Positions 28,194 to 51,451 are shown, counted from the first letter of the stretch. The stretch: DNA of 64,000 nt from an uncultured Acidobacteriota bacterium (GCA_963770895.1 CAVYRF010000001.1:960001-1024000), one strand, 5' to 3'. Numbers and translations: made by a program. Notes: a model not told the origin generated them from the sequence alone.

Positions 28194-28352
28194 ATGAAAA
28201 AGGATGCAAAGAAATTGAGGCTTTCGCGCGAAACGGTGGCTGGGCTCGATGCGCCCGGCAACCAGTCCGGGCTGGCCGCGGTGCGCGGCGGCGCCGGCAC
28301 CGCCAGCCACACGCAGCTCAAGGAGGACTGCTGCGTCAGCAAGACCCACTGA
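28194..28352 (+). CDS. RiPP (class I lanthipeptide-like) precursor peptide A1, 52 aa
   Basis: Hand translation: MKKDAKKLRLSRETVAGLDAPGNQSGLAAVRGG-AGTASHTQLKEDCCVSKTH*. GGAGGA RBS at 28180. KKLxLxRET leader, GG site and a Ser/Thr/Cys core. Not in the ORF track. Confidence 0.75.
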   Translation: MKKDAKKLRLSRETVAGLDAPGNQSGLAAVRGGAGTASHTQLKEDCCVSKTH

Positions 28353-28638
28353 GGGTGGCCCGATCCCGTGCCGGTTGATCGTCGTCGAGAGCCCGGTGGG
28401 CAGCCAAGGAGCCCAGCGGCGAGTGCACGGCCGTCGGCAGTTGCAGCCAGTACGTCTGCTGCAGCTGCAGCTAGGCAGGTTCCCAACACCAGCGGTCGCG
28501 AGAGACCAGTCTTGTCCTCCCCGCCTGCGGGATCGCCGGGACGGTCGGGCCGCGCAGCTGCTCACCCAGGGCGCGCAGCAGCCCCTTTTCGAACGCTTCC
28601 AGCGCGCCGTCGCGGGGTGGGCATGACGGCTGCGTCAG

Positions 28639-28990
28639 CTAGCGGCCCGGGGGCTGGATGTCTGGCTGGGCCCCGAGGTCCAGGGCCACGGGGGGCGTCG
28701 AAGGCCAACGGGGCGGCGGTGAAGGGGGAAAGCAGATGCGATCGACCTTGACGGCGATCAGGGTGACGAGATTGGCGACGCGGTCTACCGACAGGCGGGC
28801 GGTAAAGGTGGCGACGCCGGGCCGGGCAGTCGTTTCGCCCTTCTTGCCCATCGAAAGGGCAATGCGGCCGGTGACGACGCCGGACGTCAGCGTATCGATG
28901 TGCGGCTTATAGATGGTGACGTCGCTGCCCCGGCCAGTAAGGAACTGGCGGGGCCAGGAGCGGTGCGCCGGCGTGCCAGCGGCGGTGTCC
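28639..28990 (-). pseudogene. N-terminal fragment of a secreted protein (WPR..YxPxID family, often annotated as carbohydrate-binding V/XII)
   Basis: WPRQF..VTIYKPHID..TGRIALS..GVATFTARLSVDR..LVTL..FP, then abrupt loss of coding character. Confidence 0.35.
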
Positions 28991-29106
28991 GTGGCCGCGA
29001 GCACCGCAAGGCCGCCGAGCGGCCGGTCGGAGGTGCCGGCACTGCCTTCGACCAGCCGCTGGGCGGCCTGGTTGTCGGAATGAACCAGACTCATCGGCGC
29101 TGGCGC

Positions 29107-29970
29107 TCAGCGTGCAGGTGAGCCTGCGACTGCGGCGAGGCCCTGCGGCCGGTCGAGGCCGAAGAGATTGGGATGTCCCTGGCAGCCGCCGGTGGCAAGG
29201 TATTGGGATTTACCATCCACCTCTCCCTGGCTCAGGCCGGTGGCCAGGCGGTCGGCGCCGGCGCGGTATGCCTGCTCGATCGAGACGGGGTCGCCGGCGG
29301 GGTCGGTCGCATTGACGGCGGCTTGCCAGAGCGGCCGGATGAAGGGTTCGCACCGCGCTTCATGGTGACTGTCGGCGCTTGCCACACCGACGACGTCCCG
29401 TCCCATCCGCGCGGCTTCGTCGAGAAAGCCGCCTGAGTAACACTGATCGGCGATCAGGATCAATCGCGCGAAGGGGAGCGGCGCCAGCCGGCGAAGGAAC
29501 GCGCCAGCCGTGATCAGACCGCTTTCCAGATTGAGAAAGGGGTGGCCGAAGGCGCGCCCGCCATGGCCGGTGAGGTAGACGAGCAGCAGGTCTTGTGGCC
29601 GCATCTCACGGCGCAAGAGCTCCACGGCCTGGTCGAGGCCGGCGGTCGAAGCGGGCAGGCGCCGGAGCGCGGCGTCTTCGCCGTTCGCCTTGCCGGCGGC
29701 CACGAGCAGCGTATGGCCGGGGGTGTAGCCGAGACGGGGCAGGCTGTCCAGGGCCAGATGGACGTTGTAGTTGTGAGTGAAGGAGTCGTCGCCATTGACG
29801 ATCAGCGCGTACTGGACCCCGGCCGCGGCGGGCGCCGGAGGGACCGCGGCTGCGGCTGCGTTGTGCGACAGGGCGACAACGAGCAGTGCCGCGGCGCCGG
29901 CCCAGAGGTGCCGAGCGGCGCGGGAGCGGCGCGCCGATTGCCGAGTGTGGTTGGAAGGGGGGACGGTCAT
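29107..29970 (-). CDS. Secreted C13/legumain-like (caspase-hemoglobinase fold) cysteine peptidase
   Basis: Signal peptide, LLVYLTGHGG (His) and ILIADQCYSGGF (Cys) catalytic dyad. Confidence 0.8.
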   Translation of the reverse strand: MTVPPSNHTRQSARRSRAARHLWAGAAALLVVALSHNAAAAAVPPAPAAAGVQYALIVNGDDSFTHNYNVHLALDSLPRLGYTPGHTLLVAAGKANGEDAALRRLPASTAGLDQAVELLRREMRPQDLLLVYLTGHGGRAFGHPFLNLESGLITAGAFLRRLAPLPFARLILIADQCYSGGFLDEAARMGRDVVGVASADSHHEARCEPFIRPLWQAAVNATDPAGDPVSIEQAYRAGADRLATGLSQGEVDGKSQYLATGGCQGHPNLFGLDRPQGLAAVAGSPAR

Positions 29971-30171
29971 GGCGTGCTCCTTATCGTCGTCAGCGTGCTG
30001 GTTGGCAGCGTGTCAACGACAAGCGTAGGGCCGGCGCCCGCCGCGCACCATCGGTCGTCATCCCTTCGTGGGATCGGGAACCGTCCGGTCGCCGGCGCCT
30101 GCACCGGCCTCCCCCTTGTCGGGATTGTTCCTACGCCGCGAGGATCGATCGATGGAGCTGCCGTGCCTGCG

Positions 30172-30300
30172 TCATCGCGAGGTGGCGGCGACCGCGGTTG
30201 GCGCCGGGGCTGCGGCAGGTGGGTCGAGTGCGACGTGGGTGCTGCCGAGAGTCGCCAGGCCGTCCAGGCCCGGCATCGCCAGGTCCAGGGAGATCGCCAC
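30172..30300 (-). pseudogene. Chimeric remnant: response-regulator piece fused to a thioredoxin C-terminal tail
   Basis: ISLDLAMPGLDGLATL (REC motif) joined to STHVALDPPAAAPAPTAVAATSR*, which matches the tail of the thioredoxin at 45308. Confidence 0.5.
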
Positions 30301-30634
30301 CGGCAGAGAACGTGACCGCCCAGATCCGCGGCGTCGCTCTGCTCGATCCCTTGGCCGAAGACTCGCTGCGCCGGGCCTTCGAGGGCGAGCCGGTTCACTA
30401 CCGGGCGCGATGCGGGCTTGCTCCCGGCAAGGCGCGCCTCCTGGCCATTGCCTATGATCCGGTACGCGACCCGGCGCCGCCCTTCGGCAGCTCGTCGTCG
30501 ACCGCCGCTGAACGCCAGCCGCAAGTGGCACCCGCCGACGGCGGCCGCGAGGATCGCTATCACGTCAGGCGCTTGCTTTCGCAAGTGCCTTGCCGTATCT
30601 TTTGTGTACTCCAACCCCCTAGGGGTTCCGCTCG

Positions 30635-33256
30635 ATGTCCGCCTTCAGCCTGATCGACGACTTCCTGGGAGCGCTCATCACACTCCGCCCCGACGGCGAA
30701 ATCGTGGCCTGGAATCCAGGTGCCGAGACCCTCTGCGGGGTGCCCGCCGCAGCAGCGGTGCACCTCTCTGTTTTCGACCTCATCGTACCGCCCGGACAGG
30801 CCGACGAGGTCAACAGGCAGATCGGCAAGGCCCTGGACACCTCCTCCGCGACCTTCGAATCCGAAGTCCGCCGCCAGGACGGCTCCCTGGTCTTCGTGGC
30901 GATCGCACTGCGATCGGTCCCGGAAGCCGGCGGCAAGCTGATCGCCGCCAACATCCGCGACATCACCGAGCTGATGTACCTGCGCCAGTCGCGCGTGCTG
31001 GAAACCAAGTTCCAAGGTCTCCTGGAAGCGGCGCCCGACGCCATGATCACCATCAACCGGGACGGCCGGATCGTCCTGGTCAACGGCCCGGCGGAACGGA
31101 TCTTCGGCTACAGCCGCGGCGACCTGCTCGGCCGCCCGCTCGAAGACCTGGTGCCGCGCCTCTTTCGCGGCCAGCCGGCGCCGATGTCCAAGGTGCTCAT
31201 CGGCGCCTTCCAGCTGCGCCAGCAGAGCCAGGGCCTGTTCGACCTGCACGACCTCCATGGGTGCCGCCGGGATGGCTCCACCTTCCCCGCCGAAATCAGC
31301 CTTTCTCCCCTGGAAACCGAAGACGGCCTGTTCACCACCGCCGCGATCCGCGACATCAGCGACCGCCTGCGGGTCGAAGCCAAGTTCCGCAGCCTCCTCG
31401 AATCGGCCCCCGACGCGATGGTCATCGTCGACAGCCGGGGGCGCATCGAGCTGGTCAACGGCCAGGTCGAAAAGCTGTTCGGTTACCGCCGCGACCAGAT
31501 GCTGGGCCGCGAGGTCGAGATGCTGGTGCCGGAACGCTTCCGCCCCCAGCACGCGGGCCACCGCGACGGCTTCTTCGCCGACCCGCGCGTTCGCGGCATG
31601 GGCGCCGGCATGGAGCTGTATGGACGCCGCAGCGACGGCAGCGAATTCCCGGTGGAGATCAGCCTGAGCCCGCTCGAAACTGAAGAAGGCATCCTGGTGT
31701 CGGGCGCCATCCGCGATCTGACCGACCGCCGGCGCCTCGAAGAACAGCGCAGCAGGAGCCTGCACGAAGCCAGCCGACTGAAGAGCGAGTTCCTGGCCAA
31801 CATGTCGCACGAGTTGCGGACACCGCTCAACGCCATCATCGGTTTTTCCGAGCTGCTGTGCGACGGCAAGGCGGGTCACCTCGAACCGTTGCAGCGCGAA
31901 TATCTGGACGACGTCCTCAGAAGCTCCCGCCACCTGCTGGGCCTGATCAACGACGTGCTCGACCTGTCGAAGATCGAGGCCGGCAAGATGGAGTTCAACC
32001 CGCGCAACGTCAATCCAGCGGTGGTGGCGCGCGAAGTGTGCGACATCCTGCGCAGCATGGCGGCGACGCGACGCATCGCCATCTCGCTGCGAGACGACGG
32101 CGGCTGTTCGCGAGTCTTCACCGATCCCGCCAAGCTCAAGCAGGTGCTCTACAATTTCCTCTCGAACGCGATCAAGTTCACTCCCGAAGGCGGGCAGGTG
32201 CACCTGCGCGTCGCGCCCGAGGGGGACGACGCCTTCCGCGTCGAGGTGCGGGATACGGGCATCGGGATCCGCGCCGAAGACGTCGTGCGCCTGTTCGTCG
32301 AATTCCAACAGCTCGACGTCGGCAGCTCCAAGCGGTACGGCGGCACCGGCCTGGGCCTCGCCCTGACCAAGCGCATCGTCGAAGCGCAGGGCGGTCGCGT
32401 CGGCGTCGAAAGCGTGCCCGGCCAGGGCAGCGTCTTCTATGCCGTCCTGCCGCTGGAATGCCCGCTGCCCGCCAGCCAGGACGCGGCACTCTCCACCCTT
32501 CACCCGGGAGCCCCGACCATCCTGGTGGTCGAAGACCAGCTCAGCGACCGCATCTGGCTGGTCCGCCTGCTGACCGGCGCCGGCTACAACGTGCAGACCG
32601 CGGCCACCGGACAGGAAGCGCTCGAGCACTGCGCGCGACACCGCTTCGCGGCCATCACGCTCGACCTGCTGCTGCCCGACTGCAACGGCCTCGACCTGTT
32701 GCGATCCATCCGCACGGGAGCCGGCCCCAGCCACAACGCACCGGTCGTCATCGTCACCGTCGTAGCCGAATCGATCGCCGCCGAATTCCTGGTCCACGAC
32801 TGCCTGACCAAGCCGTTTGCCGGCGACGAGCTGCTTGCCTCTCTTGCCAGCGCCGGCATCGTGGCGCCGGAGCACCCCACGGTGCTGGGAGTGCGTCTCG
32901 ATCTCGAAACTGAGCGGTTGGTCAGAGCTACGCTCGAGCCGGCCGGCCATCGCGTGATCTTCGCCAACGATCAACAGGAAGCCCTGCGTCTGGCCGCCGA
33001 GCATCGCCCGCCCATCGTGATCCTGGATCCGCTGATGCTCGGCGCCGACGGCTTCGAGCTGGTCGAAAGCCTGCGCCGGAACACCGCAAACCTCGACACG
33101 GTGGTGCTGGTTTGCAAGGCGGGGGGGCTGGACGACGCCGATCGCCGGCAGCTGGAGGAGGTCGTCAGACAGGCGGGGCTCGCACCTTGCGCCGACGGCG
33201 CCGACGCGCTGATCGAACAGCTGCGCCACCGGCTCCAGGACAAGGCGCGCCGATAG
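30635..33256 (+). CDS. Hybrid sensor histidine kinase (3x PAS, HisKA, HATPase, REC, degenerate REC)
   Basis: PAS repeats ([12 protein letters not shown]; [10 protein letters not shown]), [44 protein letters not shown] and ILVVED..LDLLLPD. Confidence 0.95.
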
Positions 33257-33277
33257 CATGCCGGAGGCCTCGCGAAC

Positions 33278-33655
33278 GTGGCAGGCGAACCGATCCTGAT
33301 CGTGGACGACAATCCGGCCAACCTCAAGCTGGCGCGCGTCACCCTCGCCCTGGAAGGGTTCGAGGTGCGGGTGGCCGCCGATGCCGAAGAGGCGCTGGCC
33401 CTGCTCGCCGTGTTCCGGCCGCGGCTGATCCTGATGGATCTCCAGCTGCCGGGCATGGACGGCCTGACCTTCACGCGGCAGCTCAAGAGCGATCCCGCGA
33501 CGCGCGACATCCTCATCGTCGCCCTCACCGCATATGCAATGAAGGGGGACGAGGAAAAGGCGCGCGACGCCGGCTGCGACGGTTACATCACCAAGCCGAT
33601 CGACACCCGCTCGCTACCCATGGTGGTCGCCAGGCACCTGTCACAAGGCCCTTGA
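33278..33655 (+). CDS. Single-domain response regulator (DivK/CheY-like)
   Basis: ILIVDDN..LILMDLQLPGMDG..ALTAYAM..ITKP. Confidence 0.92.
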   Translation: MAGEPILIVDDNPANLKLARVTLALEGFEVRVAADAEEALALLAVFRPRLILMDLQLPGMDGLTFTRQLKSDPATRDILIVALTAYAMKGDEEKARDAGCDGYITKPIDTRSLPMVVARHLSQGP

Positions 33656-33800
33656 CCCCGATGCCGCTCACCGCTCTCGGCTGCCGCCGCGGCGACGGCG
33701 CGTTCTACAACCACGGCGCCGGTCAGCCCGCCATGACGACCGCCGGACCGCTAGGTTATACTGCTCATATCGTTGTGACACAGCTGCATGCCCGGGGGCC

Positions 33801-34937
33801 GTGGTGAGGCGCGCCGCAAACATCCTGATCGTTGACGACACCGAACAGAACCTGGTCATCCTGACAGACCTGGTGCGGGCGCTCGGCCACGACGTGCAAA
33901 CCGCCCGCGACGGTCTGGAGGCGTTGGTCAGCCTCTCCCCGGAGATCGACCTGCTGCTGCTCGACGTCATGATGCCCGGACTCGACGGCTACGCGGTGGC
34001 GCGCCGCCTGCGCGCCGACGCGCGATGGCGCGATCTGCCGGTGATCATGGTGACGGCGCTCAACAACCAACAGGACCGCCTGGCGGCCGTCGAAGCCGGT
34101 GCCAACGACTTCATCGGCAAGCCGGTGGATCCCACGGAGCTGCGCTTGCGCATCGAATCCCAGCTGCGCCTCAAAGAGGCGCGCGACGTGTTGCAACGGT
34201 CGCACGATGAGCTGGAAGCATTCGTCGCGCAGCGCACGGTCGAGCTGCGGCAGGCGCTGCTCGACATGGCGGAAGCGCGGCGCCATACCTACGGCGCGCA
34301 CGTCGATTCCATCCACCGCCTGGTCCTCGCCGCCGAATTCAAGGACGCCGGCACGGCCCACCACATCAAGCGCCTCAGCCGTTACAGCCGCATCCTGGCC
34401 GAGGCCCTGCAGCTGGCCCCCGGCGACGCCGAGATCCTGCGTCACGCCGTGACCATGCACGACGTGGGCAAGATCGGGATTCCCGACGCAATTCTGAGCA
34501 AGCCCGGCAAGCTCACCGGCGAAGAGCGCCGGATCATGGAATCGCACACGCTGATCGGCGCCCGCATCCTCGAAGGCTCGCCCTCCGAGCTGATCGAAGC
34601 CGGAAGGATCGTCGCCCTGACCCACCACGAGCGCTGGGACGGCGGCGGCTATCCCCACGGCATCGCCGGCGAGGAAATCCCGCTTTGGGGCCGCATCTGC
34701 GCGGTGATCGACGTCTTCGACGCGCTCACCACCCACCGACCCTACCGCGAGCCGATGCCGCTCACGGAGGCCTTGGCGGCGCTGGGCGCCGAGCGCGGGC
34801 GCCATTTCGACCCCGTGCTGGTCGACCATTTCCTGGCCCGCGCCGACGCGGTGCTGGCGTTGCACGGCGAGCTGCATGACAGGGAGCCGCCGGCAGACGC
34901 CACGCTGGCGCCGACGGCGCAGAGGGCACAGTCATGA
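33801..34937 (+). CDS. REC-HD-GYP c-di-GMP phosphodiesterase (RpfG-like)
   Basis: REC domain (ILIVDD, LLDVMMP), then MHDVGKIG, HHERWDGGGYP and DVFDALT..RPY. Confidence 0.92.
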   Translation: MVRRAANILIVDDTEQNLVILTDLVRALGHDVQTARDGLEALVSLSPEIDLLLLDVMMPGLDGYAVARRLRADARWRDLPVIMVTALNNQQDRLAAVEAGANDFIGKPVDPTELRLRIESQLRLKEARDVLQRSHDELEAFVAQRTVELRQALLDMAEARRHTYGAHVDSIHRLVLAAEFKDAGTAHHIKRLSRYSRILAEALQLAPGDAEILRHAVTMHDVGKIGIPDAILSKPGKLTGEERRIMESHTLIGARILEGSPSELIEAGRIVALTHHERWDGGGYPHGIAGEEIPLWGRICAVIDVFDALTTHRPYREPMPLTEALAALGAERGRHFDPVLVDHFLARADAVLALHGELHDREPPADATLAPTAQRAQS

Positions 34938-35566: not shown

Positions 35567-35600
35567 TATCCCGACTCGGGACACCAGCCGGCCGGCACCC

Positions 35601-35981: not shown

Positions 35982-35997
35982 CGATCGAACCTCGGCA

Positions 35998-37685: not shown

Positions 37686-38087
37686 CTAGGCCAAGGGTGG
37701 CAGAAGGAAGCGGCAGCGCGGACCGGCGGCTCTGGCGAGGCGCTGATCAAGCGTCGCCATGGGAAGGTCGCACTGTTCGGCCACTGCAACGTACCAGGCG
37801 TCATAGCTCGAAACGTTGCCTCGCAGCTCCGAGACCCGCTCTGCGAAAGGTATGAAGGGCACCAGCTCGAGGTCGAACTGGAGAAGGTCACGGGCGGCGG
37901 TAGCGGCTTCCATCCGGCCAAGACGGCCCGCAAGCTCGAAGCGGCGGAGGATGTTCGTGGCCTCGACGAGAGCCAGGTGAGGCGCGACCAAGCCGCCTGC
38001 GCGCATCACGTCCTCCGCCCACCTCCCGGCGGGTCCCATATCCGAGGTCGCAGCAACCAAGAGCGAGGCGTCGACGACCGCGCTCAC
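37686..38087 (-). CDS. vapC: VapC-family PIN-domain toxin
   Basis: VVDAS..EATNILRR..SSYDAWYVAVAE..ATLDQRL. Confidence 0.88.
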   Translation of the reverse strand: MSAVVDASLLVAATSDMGPAGRWAEDVMRAGGLVAPHLALVEATNILRRFELAGRLGRMEAATAARDLLQFDLELVPFIPFAERVSELRGNVSSYDAWYVAVAEQCDLPMATLDQRLARAAGPRCRFLLPPLA

Positions 38088-38320: not shown

Positions 38321-38323
38321 GGC

Positions 38324-38354: not shown

Positions 38355-38452
38355 AGCGCCGGCGGAGGGCGCATGGAGAGCAGTTCACGGCGAGGCGGAG
38401 ATGCGCCCGACGGCAGTTGCTGGGGGCAGGGGTGCCGGTCCATCGGCGCTGG

Positions 38453-38707
38453 CCGCCGCGGCGGACATCGCCCTGGCCGCCGCTGCCAGGCCCGCCGCCG
38501 CCTCGGGCGTGGTGGACGCCGGGCTCTGTCACGGCGCGGCGGGAGTGGCGCACCTGTTCGCGCGCCTGCACCTCGCGCCCGGCTCCGCGGCGCTGGCCGA
38601 CGCCGCCCGCGGCTGGCTACGCCGGGCGCTTGACCTGCGCAGCCCCGACCGCGGCCCCGGCGGCTTTGCCAGCTGGGCCGATACCTCGGCAGGCGGTACC
38701 TGGTGCG
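38453..38707 (+). pseudogene. Near-identical copy of a 3' segment of lanC (52620-52874)
   Basis: AAADIALAAAARP..DAGLCHGAAG..ADTSAGGTWC. The DNA is nearly identical to the intact gene. Confidence 0.85.
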
Positions 38708-39961: not shown

Positions 39962-41080
39962 ATGAGCTGCACAGGAGCCACACGGGTCGTCCAGGTGCAC
40001 CCGACTCGCCGCTGCAACCTCCGGTGCCTACACTGCTACTCGTCCTCCGGGCCCGAGGTGCGCGGCGGGCTGGCCGTGGGGCTCCTGTGCACGGCTCTCG
40101 CCGACGCTGTCGCCGAAGGCTACACGGCGATGGCGGTCTCGGGCGGCGAGCCGCTGCTGTACCGCCCGCTGCCGGAGCTGCTGGGTACCGCCCGCCGGCT
40201 CGGTATGATTACGGCGCTCACCACCAATGGCATGTTGCTTGACGAGCGCCGGCTCGCCTCCCTGGCCGGCGCTCTCGACCTGTTGGTCATCAGCCTCGAC
40301 GGCAAGCCGGCCTCGCACGACCGCATGCGCAACGACCCGCGCGCTTTCGCCACGATGGCCGGCCGGCTGCCCGGCCTGCGGCAGGCCGGCCTGCCCTTCG
40401 GGTTTCTCTTCACTCTCACGCAATACAACCTGCACGAGCTCGATTGGGTGGCCGCCTTTGCCGTGGAGCAGGGAGCGCGCCTGCTGCAGATCCATCCGCT
40501 CGAGCCGGCCGGACGGGCAGGCGAGACTCTGGCCGAGGAGTGCCCGGACGACGAAGAGGGGAGCTGGGCGTTCCTGGTTGCCGCTGAGCTTCAAGAGAAG
40601 TACGGCGAAAGGTTGCGCGTTCACCTGGACTTCGTAAGCCGCCGCGCCATCGCCGGACGCGCCGGCCATTTCTTCGCCGGCGCCGAGCCGGTGCCGGCGG
40701 CATCCCGCCGGGAGTGCGCGTTGCCGGCGCCGGGTGGAGCCCCGGCGGCCGCCGCCACCGGCCCCGATGCCGACGGCGATGCCGATGCTGAGAAGTGGCC
40801 ACCGCTCTCGGCGCTGGTACAGCCGCTTGTCATCGAGGCCGACGGCGAGTTGGTGCCGCTCGAGTATGGGTTCCCGCGTCACCTCTCGCTGGGGAACCTC
40901 CATGAGGCGCCGCTGCCGGCGCTCGCCGAGCGCTGGCGCCGCGAGCGCCAACCCGCCTTCCGCCGTCTTTGTCGAGCGGCCTTCGCGTCGGTCGTCGAGG
41001 CGCCTCGCACCGCGGCGCCGCTCACCAGCTGGGGCGAAGCGCTGCGGCGGGCGGATGAAGGGCTCAGATGTGCGCCGTGA
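39962..41080 (+). CDS. Radical SAM enzyme (C-terminal domain without SPASM cysteines)
   Basis: CNLRCLHC, SGGEPLL, TTNG, ISLDG..HD, QIHPLE and LVIEADG..LGNL. Confidence 0.92.
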   Translation: MSCTGATRVVQVHPTRRCNLRCLHCYSSSGPEVRGGLAVGLLCTALADAVAEGYTAMAVSGGEPLLYRPLPELLGTARRLGMITALTTNGMLLDERRLASLAGALDLLVISLDGKPASHDRMRNDPRAFATMAGRLPGLRQAGLPFGFLFTLTQYNLHELDWVAAFAVEQGARLLQIHPLEPAGRAGETLAEECPDDEEGSWAFLVAAELQEKYGERLRVHLDFVSRRAIAGRAGHFFAGAEPVPAASRRECALPAPGGAPAAAATGPDADGDADAEKWPPLSALVQPLVIEADGELVPLEYGFPRHLSLGNLHEAPLPALAERWRRERQPAFRRLCRAAFASVVEAPRTAAPLTSWGEALRRADEGLRCAP

Positions 41081-41313
41081 CAGTGCTGCCCAGGCGGCCG
41101 CCGGCTCGGCGATCCAGCGGAAGCCGCGGCCGGTCAGGGGCAGGCGGATCTGTTGCGCAACCTAAGATGGTTTGGCGCTTGCTGATCCTCGGAAAGCGTC
41201 GGAAAAAGCAGTCTGCCAAGATCCCGGGGGCGGTATGGCGGGCCGCGCCGCAAAAGCGGTTCTCTGGGTCGTCTCGCTCAGCAGCGCGGCCGGGTGTTAA
41301 CCCCTTCGGAAGG

Positions 41314-41484
41314 CTAGCAGGTGTAGCCCTGGCAGGTGATATGGGGGCACGACGGACAAACCGAACACTCGGTGGTACAGCTGAGCTTCGCGGTCAGCCC
41401 GCCGGCGAGATGCGACAGCATGCCGTTTTCCAATTGGCTGAGGGTTTCCTTTGCCAGGGCGAGACGCTTTCCCACTCTCTTCAC
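41314..41484 (-). CDS. RiPP precursor peptide A2, 56 aa, with a Cys/Ser/Thr-rich core
   Basis: Hand translation (GTG start, AAGGAG RBS): MKRVGKRLALAKETLSQLENGMLSHLAGG-LTAKLSCTTECSVCPSCPHITCQGYTC*. Not in the ORF track. Confidence 0.82.
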   Translation of the reverse strand: MKRVGKRLALAKETLSQLENGMLSHLAGGLTAKLSCTTECSVCPSCPHITCQGYTC

Positions 41485-42179
41485 GGTACGGCTCCTTTCT
41501 TGACTAGGCTTCGCTCTCTCAGGCAGATTTGCGCCAGAGCTATTTTCATAAACTGTATCACGCGAATATCGATACTACCGGACATGCAACAAGCCTCTGC
41601 ACTCCACAGTAGGGGGCTTGCAATGCGTCGTTGGTCGGCACAGGGCGCCTGGTGAGCCCGAGCATCGGCCGGCTCTGAACCTGGCCCAGCGTCAGGTGGA
41701 GGTCGAGCAGGCCCTCGATGGCGCAGCAGGTGCTCGCCAGAGTGGCGCGAGGCCGCTTCTCGCGCCGACCAAGAGCGCCTCATCCACCCGCATGCGCCAC
41801 CAGGATCCTTGCCTACTCCACCGCGCACTCGCCAAACCCTGAGCCCGCGGTGCGCGCTCGGGCAGCAGCCATCCCTGCGAACACACACCGCTTCACCGCA
41901 TGCGGGAGAGCGGCGCGGGCGCCGCCACCGCGCCCGGCTTCGATGCCGGGCATGCGACGGTCGAGGTGGCGCCCTGCCGCTGTCACCGTGGACATCCATC
42001 TGGCGAGGTCGACTCTGCGGCAGCCGTAAGTGGCGGTGAGGGCGTGATGGCGACGTCGTCACCTTTCCAGCCCGCAGCAACGACAGGGCGCCAGAGCGAT
42101 GCCAGGTCGATGGGTCCATTGGTGAGATCGAGAGGTGACCCTGGGTGGTGTACATTGGTGGTGTCTCAAGGAGGTGCGC

Positions 42180-42386
42180 GTGAGCCGAATGACCGTCACG
42201 ATCGATGATGCCTTGCTGGAAGAGGCGAAGGAAGCGCTCGGTGCCGAGACTCGTGCCGAGGCCATCCGGACCGCGCTGGGGGAGGCCGTGAGGCGCCGGC
42301 GCTTGGCGCAAGCGCTCGAGCAGCGCGGTCAATTCCAACTGCGCGGCGACCTTTCTGAGCTGCGACGTCTGCGGGAAGAAGGATGA
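42180..42386 (+). CDS. vapB: VapB-family antitoxin
   Basis: MSRMTVTIDDALLEEAKEALGAETRAEAIRTAL, with an AAGGAGGT RBS and an ATGA overlap with the toxin. Confidence 0.85.
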   Translation: MSRMTVTIDDALLEEAKEALGAETRAEAIRTALGEAVRRRRLAQALEQRGQFQLRGDLSELRRLREEG

Positions 42387-42787
42387 TCGTCGCTGACAGC
42401 TCGGCGCTGATCGAATACTACCGACGGGGAGGTTCACCGGCGGTGCAGGAGGCCGTGGCCGCGGCGATCACTGCAGACGCGCTGGCATTCAATGGCATCG
42501 TTTTCGTCGAGGTCGTCGGGTTCGCTGCTGACGAGAGGGAGCGGCGAGCGCTACTTGCGAGCTTCGGCGCCTTCCATCGCCTGGCGCTGGAAGACGGGGA
42601 CTTCGATCTTGCGGCAAGAATCGCCTTCGACTTTCGGCGCCGCGGACGCACAGTACCCGCCACCGACCTGATCATCGCCGCAAGCGCGATCCGTGCCCAG
42701 GCTGAGCTTCTCCACGTTGACGATCACTTTGACGAAATCGCCAGCGTGAGCGCCCTGGCCTCCAGGAATCTTTCCAAGCCGGCTTGA
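42383..42787 (+). CDS. vapC: VapC-family PIN-domain toxin
   Basis: IVADSSALI..VEVVG..TDLIIAASA..LLHVDDHF. Confidence 0.88.
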   Translation: MIVADSSALIEYYRRGGSPAVQEAVAAAITADALAFNGIVFVEVVGFAADERERRALLASFGAFHRLALEDGDFDLAARIAFDFRRRGRTVPATDLIIAASAIRAQAELLHVDDHFDEIASVSALASRNLSKPA

Positions 42788-43543: not shown

Positions 43544-43669
43544 GGCTTCCTCTCCAGTGTTTTCGTTGGGGCGGCCCGATCGATTTCGGGCGCTGTGCGA
43601 CCGTTCTGTACCGCAAGTGATCCCGGCTGATCGCCGCTTGCTGGAAAACAGACTACGGGGCGGCTGTTG

Positions 43670-43738: not shown

Positions 43739-43855
43739 AGGCCGGGGGCGTGTCCCGCGGATGACGGCCCACTGGGGATCGGCCCCACCCTGGGATGCGG
43801 CCTGCGGCCACCCCCGGGGTGTCGGAGGCAAGGGGGGCCCGCAATAGTCTGCTCG

Positions 43856-44488: not shown

Positions 44489-44530
44489 GCGGCGGTGCTG
44501 CCGGCGGCCGGCCAGCCGCGGCGACGACCC

Positions 44531-45167: not shown

Positions 45168-45307
45168 ACGGCGCCTGCCGCGCACCATCAGTCATTACCC
45201 CCGGTCGGGATCGGGAGTCGTCCGGTCGCCGGCGCTCGCTCCGGCCTCCTCCTTGTAGGGTTTTTCCTACGCGGCGAGGATCGATCGATGGAGATGGCGT
45301 TGCTGCG

Positions 45308-45838
45308 TCATCGCGAGGCGGCCACCGCGGTGGGTGCCGGAGCTTCGGCGGGTACGCCGGGTGCGGCGTGGGTGCTGCTTGCAAGCAGATCGCGGATGTC
45401 GTCGGGTGAGAGCGCGCCGGTCGCACGCTCGACGACGGCACCGTGATCGAACACGAGCAGCGTTGGCAATGCCTGAACGCCGTACTGTTTGGCCAGGTGG
45501 CGGGCCCATGTGACGTTGACGCGCACCACCCGCACCCGCCCGCCGGCGGTGGCCGCCACCGTTTCCAGCGATTTTTCGAGTTCCTTGCAGGGAAGGCACC
45601 AAGGTGCCGAGAAATCGACCAGGACTGGCGTCTTGGCTTGCAGAACCTGCGAGCCGAAGGAGAACAGCGACACTGCCACGATGCGCCCCTCGGCCGCCGG
45701 CGATGCGGCACCGCAGGGTGACGCCACCGTGAGCGCCAGCGCCAGCGCGGCGAGGATGACGACAACGCCGGAGCGGGCGCCGCGGTAACCGATCCTGTGG
45801 GTGACGACGGCGGCAAACGGGAGCGTGAATCGATGCAT
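45308..45838 (-). CDS. Thioredoxin with an N-terminal signal/membrane anchor
   Basis: PVLVDFSAPWCLPCK..YGVQALPTLLVF, with a hydrophobic N-terminus. Confidence 0.88.
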   Translation of the reverse strand: MHRFTLPFAAVVTHRIGYRGARSGVVVILAALALALTVASPCGAASPAAEGRIVAVSLFSFGSQVLQAKTPVLVDFSAPWCLPCKELEKSLETVAATAGGRVRVVRVNVTWARHLAKQYGVQALPTLLVFDHGAVVERATGALSPDDIRDLLASSTHAAPGVPAEAPAPTAVAASR

Positions 45839-46134
45839 GACGGCCTCCTCCATCGCTCCCGAATCGCCGGATGCAGCCGGTGTTCAGGTGCGTGAAGGAA
45901 GCATGAAGTTCGGCAGTTGGCGGCAACAGCGGCCGATCTCTGAAGGGCGCGTGCGCTTCCGCGCTCGACCCTTTGTAGGATGTTTTCCACCGGCCCAGGG
46001 TGGAGTGCTGATACCCAGGATCGCCGCGCACGCTGCGGTGGTCGGCAGCCGGCTCGCGCCCCCCGGCCGGCGGTCGATCTGGCTTGGATCGGACGGCGGT
46101 GGGGGCGGCGCTGCTGCGGGCGAGCGGCGGCGGT

Positions 46135-46866
46135 TTACGGCGTCGGCGGATTGGAGAAGGCGTTCAGGTCGATGAAGTTCTGATTGGTTCCCTGTGATGA
46201 GCTATAGGTCTTGGCCGGGCAGGGCGACTGCGCGTTGCAATGTCCGTCCAGGGTATCGGTCACGGTCAGGTTGAAGGGGACGTTGGTCGAGCTGGCGATG
46301 AAGACCCAGTAGTGGCCGTTGATGGCGGTGCCGTCCAGGACCTTGACGGAGACCTCGATGGTGCCGGCGTCGAAAAACCAGAAATAGCCTGACTCGTCGG
46401 CGACTTGCACGGCGGGGGCCTGGTGCAGAGCGGGCGTCCCCCCGCCGAGAAACCAGGACGTGGTGGCGACGAAGCGTCCGGCGAGCAGGTTGAGATCGGT
46501 GGCGGGGAGTGTGACCTGAAAAACGCTGGCGGAGAGGAAATTTCCCGAGTTGTCGACCTCTTTGACCGTGTAGCTTCCCGCGGCCAGCGTCCTCAGGGGA
46601 AACCGCTGCGTAATCGGGAAGGGCGCCGGGATGAGCGGTCCCACCTGGAGGGTGATCACATTGCCGGCGATGGTGGGAGCCTGATAGACATCGGAGAAGG
46701 TGGGCTCGACCACCAGGAACACCGAATCGCTGGTTGTCGGCAGGGCCGGGCTGATCAGGATCGGTGTCTGGGCCGCCAAGACGCCGCAGCCGCAAACCAG
46801 TGCGCCCAGGCTGGCGAGTACCTTGCAGCGGCGAGAGACGGCACCAAGCAAACGCGCTTCAAGCAT
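46135..46866 (-). CDS. Secreted hypothetical protein with a C-terminal SGYFWFF..VKVLDG..NGHYWVF domain
   Basis: Signal peptide, GGAGGT RBS and an aromatic-rich C-terminal beta domain. Confidence 0.75.
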   Translation of the reverse strand: MLEARLLGAVSRRCKVLASLGALVCGCGVLAAQTPILISPALPTTSDSVFLVVEPTFSDVYQAPTIAGNVITLQVGPLIPAPFPITQRFPLRTLAAGSYTVKEVDNSGNFLSASVFQVTLPATDLNLLAGRFVATTSWFLGGGTPALHQAPAVQVADESGYFWFFDAGTIEVSVKVLDGTAINGHYWVFIASSTNVPFNLTVTDTLDGHCNAQSPCPAKTYSSSQGTNQNFIDLNAFSNPPTP

Positions 46867-46961
46867 CCGTGGACCTCCTGGTTCTGGTAGCCGGCGACGT
46901 GGTAATTACGCCGACGGGTAGGTCCCCAATATGCTATATCAACATTTCAGGGCCTGCAACC

Positions 46962-47141
46962 CGGCCGCTGGTCTACGGGCTGTTGCGCACCGTGCATGGC
47001 GCCTCGTCGCAGGTGTCCTCCGGCAATGCGCTCTTCAGCCTGCTGGGCTTCTTCGGCATCTACACTGTGCTTTCCATCCTCTTCCTGTTCCTCCTCTACG
47101 AGCAGCTGGCGCGCGGCCCCGAGCCGGAGCCGGCTGTCTGA
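46962..47141 (+). pseudogene. cydA: Cytochrome bd oxidase subunit I, C-terminal fragment
   Basis: PLVYGLLRT..VSSGNALFSLLGFFGIY..LARGP, directly upstream of cydB. Confidence 0.75.
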
Positions 47142-47166
47142 CGCCGGCCCCGGCGGGAGACCGATC

Positions 47167-48240
47167 ATGGATGCGTTTCTGCCCGGCGTCTGGTTCTGGC
47201 TGGTGGCTGTGACGCTCGCGGTGTACGTCGTGCTCGACGGCTTCGACCTCGGCGCCGCGGTGGCCGGCCGCCTGCTGGCGCGCACCGCCGGCGAGCGGGG
47301 AGCCGTCGTGCGGACGATCGGTCCGGTGTGGGACGGCAACGAGGTGTGGCTGCTGGCCGGCGGCGGCACCCTGTTCGCGGCGTTCCCCGCGCTCTACGCC
47401 GCCAGCTTCAGCGGCTTCTACCTGCCGCTGATGATGGTGCTCTGGCCGCTCATCGGCCGCGGCGTTGCCGTGGAGCTGCGCCACCACACCGGCAGCGCTC
47501 TCTGGCGCTCCTTCTGGGACGCCATCTTCTTCGTCTCGAGCCTGCTGCTGGCGGTGTTCTACGGAGCCGCCCTGGGCAACGTGGTGCGCGGTGTGCCCTT
47601 TGGCTCCGACGGCCAGTTCTTCCTGCCGCTGTGGAGCGATTTCCGGCTGGGTCCGCCGTCCGGCATCCTGGACTGGTACACCGTGACGGCGGGGCTGACG
47701 GCGCTGGCCGCCCTGACCCTGCACGGTGCGCTGTGGCTGGCCGTCAAGCTGCCGGGCGACCTGGAAGCGCGCAGCCTGCGTCTGGCCGGGCGGCTGGTGT
47801 GGCCGCTTGCGGCCCTGACCGCGCTGCTGACCGCCGCGACCTTTTCCATCCAGCCGCTGGTGCCGGCGCATCTGGCCGCGCGGCCTTGGGGTGGGGTCTT
47901 CTGCCTGCTGGCCGTGGGCGGGCTCGCGGGTGTGATCGTCCAGGTGCGGCGGGGGCGGCCGCTCGGCGCCTTCCTGGGATCGTGCGCCTACCTGGCCGGC
48001 ATGTTGACGAGCGTCGCCTTCGGACTCTTCCCCTCGGTCCTGCCCGGTCTGCCGGCAGGTGACGCGGGGCTCACCGCGGCGGCGGCGGCCGCGCCCGCGG
48101 ACGGCCTGCGCGTGGCGCTGGCCTGGTGGATCCCCGGCATGCTGCTCGCGTGCGGCTACTCGTTGCACGTCTATCGCCACTTCGCGGGCAAGGTCGAAGC
48201 GGAGGCGGCGGCCGCCGGTCCCACCCCGGCGGGGTACTGA
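47167..48240 (+). CDS. cydB: Cytochrome bd ubiquinol oxidase subunit II
   Basis: YVVLDGFDLG, IGPVWDGNEVWL, FAAFPALYA and GAALGNVVRGVP. Confidence 0.93.
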   Translation: MDAFLPGVWFWLVAVTLAVYVVLDGFDLGAAVAGRLLARTAGERGAVVRTIGPVWDGNEVWLLAGGGTLFAAFPALYAASFSGFYLPLMMVLWPLIGRGVAVELRHHTGSALWRSFWDAIFFVSSLLLAVFYGAALGNVVRGVPFGSDGQFFLPLWSDFRLGPPSGILDWYTVTAGLTALAALTLHGALWLAVKLPGDLEARSLRLAGRLVWPLAALTALLTAATFSIQPLVPAHLAARPWGGVFCLLAVGGLAGVIVQVRRGRPLGAFLGSCAYLAGMLTSVAFGLFPSVLPGLPAGDAGLTAAAAAAPADGLRVALAWWIPGMLLACGYSLHVYRHFAGKVEAEAAAAGPTPAGY

Positions 48241-48361
48241 GCGCCGGCTGTGGGCGCCAGGCGCGACGCCTGGGCACGACCCCGATCGGCGCCCATCCGT
48301 TGGAATTCATGTCCGAAAGGCTGGCTGCCGGCCTGCCAGGGCCTCGGCGCGTTGCTGCCCC

Positions 48362-48430
48362 GCCGGCGGGGTGGGTTGCAAGCCCACCTGGCGGGACCCT
48401 GCGGACCACCCCCAGGGAGGTCGGCGGCAC
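48362..48430 (+). repeat. ~68-bp element, partner of 43670-43738
   Basis: Contains GGTGGG-N7-CCCACC; see the alignment given for the partner copy. Confidence 0.7.
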
Positions 48431-48532
48431 CGCGGGCGCTCTATTCCAGGCTGTGGGGCTCGTCGCTGGCCGTGGTGGCGGTCGCGGCGCTGGTGCCGTT
48501 TACGCCAAACGCTGCGCGAAAGCCAGTCCTGG

Positions 48533-48813
48533 CTATCGCCGGTACCGGCGGATGGCAGCCTGGCCGCCGGATCGCCGGGTGGTGATGCCCAGCACGGCGT
48601 AGAAAGGGCACCAGCCGGCCAGGTCGCGAGCGGCACCCAGCCGAAGATTCCGAGCGCGATGCCGGCGACACCCGCCACGACACCGAAGGCGGGCATCGCC
48701 AGCATGGTGACGGCGGCGACGATGCGCAGCAGGCGGTCGGCACGGCCGAGGTTGCGCCAGTCGGCCGGGTCCGGGTCACGCGCGGGTGACGGGCTGTTTG
48801 CGGCTTGCATCAT
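48533..48813 (-). pseudogene. DUF2892/YgaP-like membrane protein, frameshifted
   Basis: NLGRADRLLR..GWVPLAT, then LAGWCPFYAVLGITT continues in another frame near 48622. Confidence 0.65.
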
Positions 48814-48844
48814 GTAGGTCCGAGCCGGCGACCGGTGGCGCGTT

Positions 48845-49020
48845 TCAGGCCGCGCTCTGCGCGGAAGAGGGTTCCGTGGCTCCGCCGCGCCGTTCGCGGG
48901 CGGCGCGCGGCGGCACCACCACCAGGTTCGTGTCGCAGAAGTTCACCAGGGCTTCGGCGACGCTGCCGAGCAGGAGCCGTTCGAAGCCGCCGCGGCCGTG
49001 GGTGCCGGCGATGATGTCGA
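48845..49020 (-). pseudogene. Universal stress protein, C-terminal fragment
   Basis: IIAGTHGRGGFERLLLGSVAEALV..NLVVVPP. Confidence 0.75.
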
Positions 49021-49515
49021 GGCGCCGCTCTAGCGCTTTCGGCCGGTTTGAGAAGCGCACGGGGGCCGTGGTGCGCGTACCGGCCCCTGCGGAGCACTGG
49101 CCCAGCCGCACAGCATGTTAGAGTGATCGGGTTGCAGATAGATCCGCCGCGCCGAGGCAGTGTCCTCCAGGCCGGCGGAACCGGCGCTCAAGGCGCCAAG
49201 GAGATCCGATGCGCAGACCAATGATGACCCTGGCGGCCCTCCTCCTGGCTGCCGCAGCCTTCGGCGCGACCAGGCCGCAGCCTGCGCAGCAGGGAATGCG
49301 GAGGCCACAATGCGCCACCTGTTTGCCGGGATATATCTGCAGCGGGCCGCCACTCTACGAGTGCATCCGGTAGGGCCCGTCGACGGATCCACGACCTTCG
49401 AGCCGAGTCCTCGGCAGGAGCTGATGGAGCGACTCGGCGCCTGCGCGCTTGCATTCTTTGGCTCCGGGTGGGGCCCCGGCTCCCCCGGCCTTCAATCAGA
49501 GGAAGGGGGACGACG

Positions 49516-50157
49516 GTGAAGGCATCTTCGACAGTCATTCTTCTCGCTTGCGCAGCGCTCGGTGCCGTGGCGCTGCACGGCCAGCAGCCAAGCAAGCCGC
49601 TCTCGCCGCGCGGCACCGCCGCCACTCAGGTCGGAGCCACCTGGGTCGCGCAAAAACCTGGGGTCCCGCCGAAATACCCCGGCGGCAAATGGATCGAGGT
49701 CGAGTACGGCCGCCCGATCCTGCACGGGCGCAACAACATCTTCGGCAGCGGCGCGGACTACGGGAAGAGCGTCAATGCAGGCGCCCCGGTGTGGCGTGCC
49801 GGCGCCGGGTCCACCACCAAGCTCACCACCGAGGTGCCGATCGTGATCGGCGGCAAGACCCTCAAGCCCGGGGTCTACGATCTGTTCGTGGAGCTCAAGG
49901 AAGGAGCCTGGACCCTGATCGTGGGGACGCAGCCGACCCAGGACACCCACGACGCCAAGGAGAAGACTGCGATTTGGGGAGCCTACGGCTACGACCCCAA
50001 GTTCGACGTCGCGCGGGCGCCGATGACGGTGACCAAGCTCGAGCACTCGGTCGACCAGTTCACCATCGGCTTCCTCGACATGAGCGACAGCGGCGGCAAG
50101 CTGGGGATGGAGTGGGATACAACCGGCGCGAGCGTGGCGTTCTCGATCGCGCAATAA
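49516..50157 (+). CDS. DUF2911-family secreted protein
   Basis: Signal peptide, LSPRG..IEVEYGRP..IFG..VWRAGA..GKTLKPGVYDLF. Confidence 0.82.
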   Translation: MKASSTVILLACAALGAVALHGQQPSKPLSPRGTAATQVGATWVAQKPGVPPKYPGGKWIEVEYGRPILHGRNNIFGSGADYGKSVNAGAPVWRAGAGSTTKLTTEVPIVIGGKTLKPGVYDLFVELKEGAWTLIVGTQPTQDTHDAKEKTAIWGAYGYDPKFDVARAPMTVTKLEHSVDQFTIGFLDMSDSGGKLGMEWDTTGASVAFSIAQ

Positions 50158-50260
50158 GGCTCCCAGGTTCCGGAGCGCACATTCGGACGATCAAAACCCC
50201 GGGCGGCCCGTTCACCGGAGCCGCCGTCGGCGCGCGGTGCCGCCCCGCAGGGGGAGAGGG

Positions 50261-51139
50261 CTAAAGTTCGCCGCCGGGGCGGGGAGCGAGGCCGGCCAGT
50301 TGGGCGAGGCGGCTGTAGCGCTCCTGTAGCAGGACGGCGTGACCGGGCACGAGGTCCAGGATCATCACCTCGTCGACCTGGTGTCGATCGGCGATGCTCT
50401 CGAACGCCGCCACGCAGCTGTGCGGCGCGTCAACGACCGTCACGTCGCCAAGGCCGTTGCTTTCGCGCTCGGCCAGCGCCAGGTCACGGGTGGCGGCGGT
50501 CACCATGCTGGCGACGACGATCGCCCGCGGCGCGGCGAACTCGGGGCTGGGGACGAAGTGGCGGTAGTAGGCGGCGATCACCGCGGCGCCGTCGGCGGTG
50601 GTGCCGTGGTGCAGTGAAAAGCAGAAGCCGGTGCCGTGGCGGGCCGCCCACAAGGCGCTGCTTTCGCTGGCGCCCAACAGCCACATCGGCGGCCCGTTCT
50701 CCAGATGCGGCTCGACGCCGGCCGGAAGGGACTCCGGCGGGCGGCCGGTCAACAGGCAGTGGAGCTCGTCGAGCTTCCGATCGTAGGGCCGCAAGGTCTC
50801 GGGCGGACGGCCGTCGAACATCAGGTCGCGCATCTCGGGCGGCAGCTTCAGACCGCGCGTGATGCCCAGGTCGAAGCGGTCCGGCAGCAGGTATTCGATC
50901 AACCGTGCGTCCTCGGCGATCCGCAGGGGGGTCTGGTATGTGAGGCACGCTCCCCCGCTGCCGATACGGATACCCCGTGTGGTCGCCGCCAGCAGGGAGC
51001 CCAGCATCAGCGGGTTGGCGCACTGCCACCTGCTGTGATGCTCGCCCAACCAGAAGCGCGTGAAGCCCAGGGCGTCGGCCGCCGCCATGAAGTCGACGGC
51101 GGCGCCGACGTGGCCGAAATAAAGGATCGAAAGGTTCAT
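50261..51139 (-). CDS. Luciferase-like (LLM class) flavin-dependent oxidoreductase
   Basis: GFTRFWLGEHH, IRIGSGG, PLRIAED, DRFDLGITRG and PMWLLG. Confidence 0.88.
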   Translation of the reverse strand: MNLSILYFGHVGAAVDFMAAADALGFTRFWLGEHHSRWQCANPLMLGSLLAATTRGIRIGSGGACLTYQTPLRIAEDARLIEYLLPDRFDLGITRGLKLPPEMRDLMFDGRPPETLRPYDRKLDELHCLLTGRPPESLPAGVEPHLENGPPMWLLGASESSALWAARHGTGFCFSLHHGTTADGAAVIAAYYRHFVPSPEFAAPRAIVVASMVTAATRDLALAERESNGLGDVTVVDAPHSCVAAFESIADRHQVDEVMILDLVPGHAVLLQERYSRLAQLAGLAPRPGGEL

Positions 51140-51292
51140 GGGGTGGTTTGAAAATCGTTGCAACAGTTCGTCGCTTCGTGATAGAGAGTTTATTGCAGGT
51201 TGGGAGCCCCGCTCAACCTCCAGCTCGTCCTCGCGGTGCGCGGCACCACCGCCGCGGACCGTTTACCACCGCCAGCGCAAAAGGAGCCAACG

Positions 51293-51451
51293 ATGCAGAA
51301 GAATCAAAAGCAGCCGCAAGGCCCCCGGATCTCTTTCCATCGCGAGACGCTGCGCCAGCTCCAGGTCAGCGAATACGAGCAGGTCAAGGCCGGCCACGTC
51401 ACCTGCCCCACGTTCTCGCAGTATCGTATCTGCCCGATCTGCTGCCTCTGA
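51293..51451 (+). CDS. RiPP precursor peptide A3, 52 aa, upstream of lanC
   Basis: AAGGAG RBS. MQKNQKQPQGPRISFHRETLRQLQVSEYEQVKAG-HVTCPTFSQYRICPICCL*. Confidence 0.82.
   Translation: MQKNQKQPQGPRISFHRETLRQLQVSEYEQVKAGHVTCPTFSQYRICPICCL

Follow-up and report, generated by a model that had tools for sequence, protein, structure and literature searches.

A dispersed family of some ninety putative class I lanthipeptide precursor genes in the genome of an uncultured Acidobacteriota bacterium with a single complete LanB

The stretch of DNA analysed here, called the window below, is 64,000 nucleotides long and comes from an uncultured Acidobacteriota bacterium (GCA_963770895.1, CAVYRF010000001.1:960001-1024000). 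It carries three short genes, A1, A2 and A3, encoding peptides with a common leader and unrelated, cysteine-rich cores. We consider it likely that they are three of about 90 dispersed, mostly stand-alone precursor genes for class I lanthipeptides, with a LanB dehydratase acting on their products in trans. This reading starts from what was observed directly: the gene family, the type of its leader, the link of this leader to LanB and LanC in related genomes, the enzyme inventory of the genome, and the expansion of the family in one lineage. Transcription, dehydration, ring formation, the action of LanB in trans, leader cleavage and bioactivity are what we infer for the family peptides from their sequences.

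A first-pass annotation of the window had pointed out the three genes as short open reading frames (ORFs) with a shared leader motif, unrelated Cys-rich cores, good ribosome-binding sites and a spacing of 10 to 13 kb. All three are found where it placed them (Table 1). A1 and A2 are 13.3 kb apart, A2 and A3 9.8 kb, and a Shine-Dalgarno sequence (GGAGG or AAGGAG) lies 6-9 nt 5' of each start codon. Each gene encodes fewer than 60 aa, so that an ORF-finding tool used at its default length would not list any of them. A1, whose translation is MKKDAKKLRLSRETVAGLDAPGNQSGLAAVRGGAGTASHTQLKEDCCVSKTH, begins with MKKDAKKLRLSRETV; its leader, MKKDAKKLRLSRETVAGLDAPGNQSGLAAVRGG, ends in VRGG, and its core is AGTASHTQLKEDCCVSKTH, with 2 Cys and 5 Ser/Thr. 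The A2 leader ends in LAGG and is followed by the core LTAKLSCTTECSVCPSCPHITCQGYTC (7 Cys, 9 Ser/Thr); that of A3 ends in VKAG, followed by HVTCPTFSQYRICPICCL (4 Cys, 3 Ser/Thr). The GG-type cleavage site at the end of the leader is RGG in A1, AGG in A2 and KAG in A3. The motif LxLx(K/R)x5L reads LRLSRETVAGL in A1, LALAKETLSQL in A2 and ISFHRETLRQL in A3, the last with I and F in the first two positions.

The whole genome (8.16 Mb in 3 contigs, C1 to C3, 70.7% GC) was scanned with the motif [KR][LI]x[LF]x[RK]ET[LV] over its six-frame translation. There were 37 matches, against 0.4 expected from residue frequencies and 0 with the reversed motif, and 36 of the 37 lie at most 70 aa before a stop and have a Cys-rich tail. 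A hidden Markov model (HMM) built from 36 motif-match leaders was then searched against all stop-to-stop segments. It gave 94 matches at E≤0.05 (29 on C1, 64 on C2 and 1 on C3), with E-values of 2.5e-10 for A1, 4.1e-10 for A2 and 2.2e-13 for A3. A plausible start codon could be placed for 89 of the 94, giving peptides of 42-75 aa. Nearly all of these 89 copies begin with an ATG that follows a Shine-Dalgarno sequence, their frames are intact, and the GC content of the concatenated ORFs at codon positions 1, 2 and 3 is 0.54, 0.54 and 0.84, the pattern of genuine genes in this genome. The whole-genome scan that the first-pass annotation had proposed therefore yields some 90 short ORFs, dispersed over the genome, in which a common leader precedes Cys/Ser/Thr cores of hypervariable sequence; its three precursors are real, but as a count three falls far short of the 94 leader matches that the genome carries.

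Little else is common to the loci. Among k-mers in the 200 nt upstream of the 89 members, no shared promoter motif was found apart from the Shine-Dalgarno sequence itself (AAGGAG, 38 against 7.5), and the sigma-54 and sigma-70 consensus sequences were not enriched there. No universal neighbour gene emerged when ORFs up to 4 kb away from the 94 loci were clustered. The commonest types were ADOP permeases (14), histidine kinases or response regulators (9), megasynthases (9) and ABC transporters (8), and Vgb-lyase-like, BNR/sortilin and integrase genes were also found. Megasynthases near precursors were not enriched (12 versus 17 at random points).

Alignment of 40 members gave the consensus MKKxxxKLxLxRETLxxLxxxxLxxAAGG, followed by a Cys-rich core in which little else is conserved; M1, E and T are the only invariant positions. 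We divided 88 members into leader and core at the GG-type site, by a rule of our own. The leader has a mean length of 29 aa and the core of 26 aa (range 12-48), and the doublet closing the leader is GG in 52 members, AA in 18, AG in 11, GA in 5 and GQ in 2. Cysteine makes up 16.6% of the cores versus 0.6% of the leaders, and the cores contain 15.1% Thr and 8.2% Ser. In 86 of the 88 cores Ser and Thr together are at least as numerous as Cys, 378 of the 385 Cys are preceded by a Ser or Thr at a distance of 2-7 residues (∼79% would be expected from Ser/Thr density alone), and Cys is the last residue in 38 cores.

The first-pass annotation had noted as known that leaders of the KLxLxKET type with a GG site occur on class I lanthipeptide precursors, and this is in print. 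In PMC7268733, class I LanAs of Bacteroidetes are described as carrying LxLxKx5L instead of FxLD, with Gly-Gly at the end of many such leaders and, frequently, a C39 protease gene in the cluster; the consensus of our family fits the spacing given there exactly. For viridisin, PMC9680876 reports that class I precursors whose leaders have a double glycine are modified by a LanC/LanB pair. Among leader models, NF038153 (lant_leader_L1a, 'class I lanthipeptide') was matched by 24 of the 40 members at E≤1, with a best E-value of 1.8e-6, and TIGR04149 by 2 of the 40 (best E 0.02) and by none of A1-A3. None of A1-A3 and the 40 members matched a Nif11 or NHLP leader model, and a Pfam scan of the same peptides gave no family, only matches at chance level. 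These comparisons support a leader of the LxLx(K/R)x5L...GG class I lanthipeptide type, closest to NF038153, and they support the assignment of A1-A3 as putative new members of a known precursor type, the class I lanthipeptide LanA.

Searches for lanB and for C39-peptidase transporter genes, which the first-pass annotation had also suggested, both gave results. Exactly one complete LanB was found in the genome, together with a LanC and far from the family precursors. Of the two genes matching PF04738, it is the one at C2:5180050-5183583, which encodes a protein of 1177 aa with both the N-terminal glutamylation domain (PF04738, 550 bits) and the elimination domain (PF14028, 236 bits); the LanC gene (C2:5178405-5180015) is divergent from it. 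The neighbours are genes for chorismate synthase, RNase II, a type II secretion system (T2SS) ATPase and an M14 peptidase. The nearest family precursor is 17 kb from this LanB, and no Cys-rich small ORF is close to it. The other, a LanB-like gene (C2:4507910-4510687, 925 aa), was rejected as a lanthipeptide dehydratase: its product has the N-terminal, glutamylation-type domain but lacks the elimination domain, and neither a LanC nor a family precursor adjoins it. A stand-alone PF14028 (Lant_dehydr_C) match at C2:3339409-3340281, in a frame of 485 aa, has neither a LanC nor a family precursor beside it. At least two canonical C39 plus ABC transporters are encoded elsewhere in the genome (C1:1782768-1784981 and C2:2970253-2973840), and a third protein has C39 and ABC ATPase domains; none of them lies within 45 kb of any family precursor. 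The C39 match at C2:1561828-1565859 was discarded as a transporter, being an RHS-repeat protein. The SPASM domain has 5 matches in the genome, none of them in the window.

PF05147 (LanC-like) has 14 matches in the genome, four of which are in frames of at least 1000 aa. The two of these four that were examined are LanM loci (C2:4307653 and C2:276460), and the precursor found near each of them bears another kind of leader, (A/I)RAW(K/R)D..Y..SL. One of the two also has, 3.5 kb away and beside an ABC transporter, a member of the dispersed family. At four loci (Table 1), none of which has a dehydratase, family precursors have stand-alone LanC genes, five in all, within ∼2 kb.

A3 is at one of these loci. 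Its linked LanC, aligned to NisC (2g02) and to 8byk, keeps the HG, WCYG and CHG motifs, which contain the catalytic His and the zinc ligands, and it is probably a dedicated cyclase for A3. On the other side of A3 is a gene for a luciferase-like oxidoreductase, scoring 149 bits with TIGR03558, below the cut-off of 167; it is possibly a tailoring enzyme for A3, or a mere neighbour. An ortholog of A3 with the same two flanks, oxidoreductase and LanC, is present in one congener (G004), where the core is SSPSFSHLPHCPLCCP; the pattern common to the two cores is (S/T)FS....CP.CC. A 260-bp piece at 38448-38707 (+), in a region without family match, is 96% identical to positions 52615-52874 of the LanC gene linked to A3; its appearance is that of a pseudogene remnant or of a partial duplication of recent date.

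Complexes were predicted with residues 1-780 of the complete LanB and A2, and with 3 controls. The LanB-A2 pair scored 0.56, versus 0.01 for the best control. The mark that this score passes was also passed by 58 of the 80 solved complexes tried and by 2 of the 110 mismatched pairs, only 7 of the 80 solved complexes and both of these mismatches doing so at 0.60 or under. Runs agreed in at least 35% of contacts, and the predicted local distance difference test (pLDDT) of the partner was at least 39. A LanB-leader complex like this one (NisB-NisA) has already been solved, and because of this the pass shows likeness at most. The prediction gives weak support to a binding of A2 to LanB.

We then considered related genomes. 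The survey covered 31 of them, this one included, with a profile of 40 members and up to 150 candidates scored per genome. The family was present in 19 of the 31; it was found in 9 of 9 congeners (1-67 copies, with tens of copies in each save G002, which has one) and in 15 of 18 others of the bacterial family. A LanB scoring at least 475 bits on PF04738 was found in 17 of the 19 genomes with precursors versus 1 of the 12 without, which is a pattern and not a statistic, since kin are not independent. Among the exceptions, G013 has its LanB split over contig ends.

In relatives, the same leader directly adjoins LanC and LanB at four loci: L060 (G002), L061, L062 (G021) and L063 (G024). L062 (G021:C7:22001-30000) has six tandem precursors with related cores (…RCTTTDTCTDSC…CC), next to a LanC and a 1430-aa LanB frame, and is the clustered counterpart of the dispersed arrangement. 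In the genome studied here, A3 is the only one of the three window genes to have a LanC neighbour, and the complete LanB lies on a different contig. With LanB as the query, species-representative genomes yielded 80 loci, mostly from soil metagenome-assembled genomes (MAGs) labelled Thermoanaerobaculia or Acidobacteriota; other hosts were Holophagales, Archangium, Cystobacter, Myxococcus, Kofleriaceae and some Actinomycetota MAGs. The leader HMM matched within 5 kb of LanB in 27 of the 80 loci. There was no match at any of the 7 loci whose LanB is closest, three of these 7 being truncated at contig ends.

A wider sample of the phylum consisted of 200 evenly chosen genomes, at least 85% complete, with 33 candidates scored per genome. 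Matches at E≤1e-6 were found in 8 of the 200 (7 of 199 without the unpublished G174), and copy numbers were mostly 1-2, the exceptions being one genome from the same order, with 30, and another with 9. So few copies elsewhere in the phylum mean that the large expansion is specific to this lineage, in soil Thermoanaerobaculia.

Several observations weigh against the reading of A1-A3 as class I precursors matured by LanB in trans. Modification of the family peptides is here a prediction from genes. LanB is absent from the window and from its contig, and no lanthipeptide enzyme is found near A1 or A2, the nearest candidate maturase of A2 being the product of a radical SAM gene (Table 1). With NF038153, whose cut-off is 22 bits, A1 scores 16.1, A2 21.1, and A3 has no match, and in the whole genome only 3 loci exceed the cut-off. 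A1-A3, being below this cut-off, are therefore relatives of the modelled leader and not formal members of the model. Among the related genomes, G005 (84% complete) is rich in precursors and has a LanB match of 228 bits only, and G023 has a LanB and no detectable precursors. One public relative of the family is named 'TIGR04149 family rSAM-modified RiPP' (radical SAM; a peptide made by the ribosome and then modified post-translationally). Finally, the family member at C2:2709152-2709301, right after a LanC gene, has a core without Cys (…AGAGAGTMVHLNNSRVIHD). Two related members, of the 'ETLLPL' type, have one Cys each; these Cys-less and single-Cys copies are either a sub-family with another fate or decaying copies.

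Could the peptides do without enzymatic rings altogether? They would then be secreted from double-glycine leaders as class II bacteriocin-like peptides, or as disulfide-rich signalling or metal-binding peptides, with C39 export and no part for LanB. The 52 of 88 leaders ending in GG, the canonical C39 plus ABC transporters of the genome and the many precursors without a nearby maturase would suit such a scheme, and Cys-rich cores could equally well form disulfides. We nevertheless hold it to be unlikely, because in relatives the same leader adjoins LanB and LanC, genomes that have this leader tend to have the LanB ortholog, Ser and Thr are enriched upstream of Cys in the cores, and four loci pair a precursor with a LanC; nor do the precursors have a transporter of this kind close by. 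We give somewhat less credit still to a maturation of some or all members by another enzyme recognising a similar leader, either the radical SAM protein encoded beside A2 (sacti- or ranthipeptide-like, of the TIGR04149 type) or LanM and GMC-oxidoreductase chemistry. Convergence of the radical SAM gene with A2 recurs in the congener G008, where two convergent family precursors with other cores follow the same gene, and the public relative named after TIGR04149 goes in the same direction; but the gene has no precursor beside it in G005. No SPASM domain was reported in its product, whose NCBIfam matches (NirJ/Ahb-like and peptide-maturase models) cover the N-terminal half only and are far under the cut-offs, while none of the 5 SPASM matches of the genome falls in the window. 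The TIGR04149 model itself is matched by 2 of 40 members, versus 24 of 40 for NF038153. The radical SAM gene is taken here as context for A2 only. As for LanM, a Cys-rich precursor from Thermoanaerobaculia is modified by LanM and a thiazole-making GMC oxidoreductase (PMC13083261), but the precursors at both LanM loci examined here have a different leader.

A last alternative would be that most copies form a silent or decaying reservoir, fed by duplication and mobile-element traffic, with only a few enzyme-linked copies functional. Turnover is indeed high, as orthologs of A1 and of A3 were found in 1 of 9 congeners each and of A2 in none of the 9; the region of A2 is plastic (see below), integrases adjoin some copies, and at least one copy has no start codon. 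This seems to us the least probable of the alternatives, and rather improbable by itself, because nearly all of the 89 copies keep an ATG, a strong Shine-Dalgarno sequence, an intact frame and a high GC content at the third codon position, because the A1 core is ∼94% identical to its G005 ortholog at the DNA level with a drop right after the stop codon, and because tens of copies are retained across the 9 congeners, G002 with its one copy excepted.

If the dispersed genes are indeed class I precursors served by LanB in trans, as we favour, the conserved leader would dock each peptide on the single complete LanB. This enzyme would glutamylate Ser and Thr of the core, and elimination of glutamate would leave dehydro-residues. 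Cys thiols would then be added to these residues, forming thioether rings, by LanB's neighbouring LanC or by a paralogue linked to the precursor, as at A3, and a C39-peptidase ABC transporter encoded elsewhere would cut after the GG or AG site and export the product. Such activities are established for the LanB, LanC and C39 transporter families. A bolder version, to which we give an even chance, would have a hub-and-spoke class I factory, in which a LanB embedded among housekeeping genes acts in trans on ∼90 precursors of fast turnover, while the LanC partner or paralogue sets the ring topology; the prochlorosins would thereby gain their first natural counterpart in class I. The first-pass annotation had imagined a scattered, prochlorosin-style library served by shared enzymes. 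The ∼90 dispersed precursors and the one LanB, like all the in-silico tests made, support it, with the correction that sharing is not complete, as A3 has a LanC-like cyclase of its own.

Table 1. Precursor genes, their neighbours in the window, and loci of the genome that pair a precursor with LanC and no dehydratase.
Feature	Position	Strand	Description and evidence
A1 precursor gene	28194-28352	+	52 aa, ATG start
A2 precursor gene	41314-41484	-	56 aa, GTG start at 41484
A3 precursor gene	51293-51451	+	52 aa, ATG start
LanC-like cyclase gene	51617-52990	+	457 aa, 165 bp 3' of A3; PF05147 86.8 bits
Luciferase-like (LLM, MsnO8-type) oxidoreductase gene	50261-51163	-	divergent from A3; PF00296 88.6 bits
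ADOP-family duplicated MacB/FtsX permease gene	25610-28114	-	divergent from A1; TIGR03434 847.7 bits, Pfam
Radical SAM gene	39962-41080	+	convergent with A2, 233 bp between stops; PF04055 55 bits
Precursor plus LanC-only loci	A3; C1:1568272; C2:3323047 (two LanCs); C2:2709301		PF05147 plus leader HMM

The other surroundings of A1 and A2 were examined as well. The start codons of A1 and of the ADOP permease gene are separated by 80 bp. Genome-wide, 51 ADOP permease paralogues were counted, and one lies within 4 kb of 12 of the 89 precursors, versus 5.6 ± 2.3 at random points, with 4 of 300 simulations reaching 12; this ∼2-fold enrichment is a weak hint of a link to export or immunity. At the DNA level, an A1 ortholog is present in 1 of the 9 congeners, G005, with the core AGTASYTQLKEDCCISKTTH in place of the A1 core given above. 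Identity in the core is above that in the leader, and similarity ends right after the stop codon. A frame following A1 (28379-28474, ending in ECTAVGSCSQYVCCSCS before its stop) was tried as a fourth precursor and rejected for lack of a start codon and of conservation in G005; its core-like appearance is probably due to chance in GC-rich DNA.

No A2 ortholog was found at the DNA level in the 9 congeners. The ORF overlapping the start of A2 (41481-42437, minus strand) has no family match, is antisense to vapBC and was set aside as spurious. The vapBC genes, a vapB-like antitoxin and PIN toxin pair read from the sequence, are at 42181-42787, and a second PIN gene is at 37686-38087. The segment 42112-42789 has 75-89% DNA identity in 9 of 9 congeners, with two copies in some, and its flanks are not conserved. 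A dispersed repeat of 135 bp, at 41754-41891 in the window, has 18 copies in the genome, with 76-86% identity and a sharp left boundary. Four of these copies lie at most 1.5 kb from a family precursor (∼0.6 expected), and several are clustered at C2:4737-4748 kb. Two further segments, 41139-41204 and 41275-41336, the latter overlapping the A2 stop, are 88-89% identical to C1:626884-626949 and C1:2077895-2077959; the former of these sits just upstream of a family precursor (C1:626969-627136). With the vapBC pair, the second PIN gene, the 135-bp repeat and the LanC fragment, the surroundings of A2 look plastic. The window is filled at either end (2-25575 and 53313-64000) by giant, putative megasynthase ORFs, of 6398 aa (open on the 5' side), 2126 aa and more than 3562 aa; by crude gene calls, 84 genes of at least 2000 aa occur genome-wide, for a total of 1.16 Mb. 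Rfam searched over the whole window gave 0 matches at the gathering score.

Natural combinatorial lanthipeptide libraries have so far been known for class II enzymes (ProcM, SyncM), and in the available part of the review PMC12328550 natural multi-substrate systems are discussed for LanM only. Among open-access papers and preprints, searched in their main text, we found none that deals with class I lanthipeptides of Thermoanaerobaculia or with a class I library of dispersed precursors. If our reading is true, a glutamyl-tRNA-dependent LanB can match ProcM in substrate tolerance, peptide engineering would have a new scaffold at hand, with a separate dehydratase and exchangeable cyclases, and one uncultured soil bacterium would offer ∼90 unexplored ring-peptide cores, with tens more per relative. 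Because they are far from any enzyme, nearly all members of the family would be missed by cluster-based genome mining. An annotation gap is also exposed: a profile search of public proteins gave 491 relatives at E≤1e-5 among 1929 candidates. Among the 120 relatives listed, 3 are called 'class I lanthipeptide', 3 'natural product precursor' and 1, mentioned above, after TIGR04149; the remaining ones are 'hypothetical protein' or unnamed.

Of the known systems, the closest are the class I LanAs of the Bacteroidetes type (PMC7268733, NF038153), with viridisin VdsA and VdsCB (PMC9680876), which have the same leader motif, spacing, GG-type site and Ser/Thr/Cys core. Their leader goes with separate LanB, LanC and C39 exporters, and in relatives of our genome it likewise adjoins LanC and LanB. 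In known class I cases, however, one to a few precursors lie inside the cluster, whereas here ∼90 are scattered away from a single LanB. The family also differs from the Bacteroidetes type in belonging to Acidobacteriota (Thermoanaerobaculia), in that A1-A3 are under the cut-off of the model, and in its several LanC-only pairs. Radical SAM RiPPs of the TIGR04149 type (GG_sam_targ_CFB) have a similar overall leader layout with a GG end, but this model has the few matches given above, none of them with A1-A3, and no SPASM maturase is associated here. The ThaA/ThaM/ThaO and TheA/TheO systems come from the same bacterial class and share an N-terminal leader and a Cys-rich core (PMC13083261, section 9). 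They are clustered class II systems in which a GMC oxidoreductase makes thiazole, and that section describes no dispersed library for them; we set them apart on these grounds.

The likeness to prochlorosins and SyncA is of another kind. In marine picocyanobacteria a single promiscuous synthetase of class II (ProcM or SyncM) acts on as many as 79 substrates in one strain (PMC9872173), a number that the 94 copies found here exceed, and many prochlorosin-type genes are far from LanM (PMC7268733). Both systems have tens of precursors with a conserved leader and hypervariable cores, many of them distant from the single synthetase, and rapid turnover. But prochlorosins have a bifunctional LanM, a Nif11/NHLP leader and another organism and habitat, whereas here LanB and LanC are separate and extra LanCs are linked to precursors. 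The family is not a member of the prochlorosins, and the likeness is one of architecture only. We conclude that one LanB, ∼90 scattered precursors and several LanC-only pairs support a new architecture built on a known precursor type.

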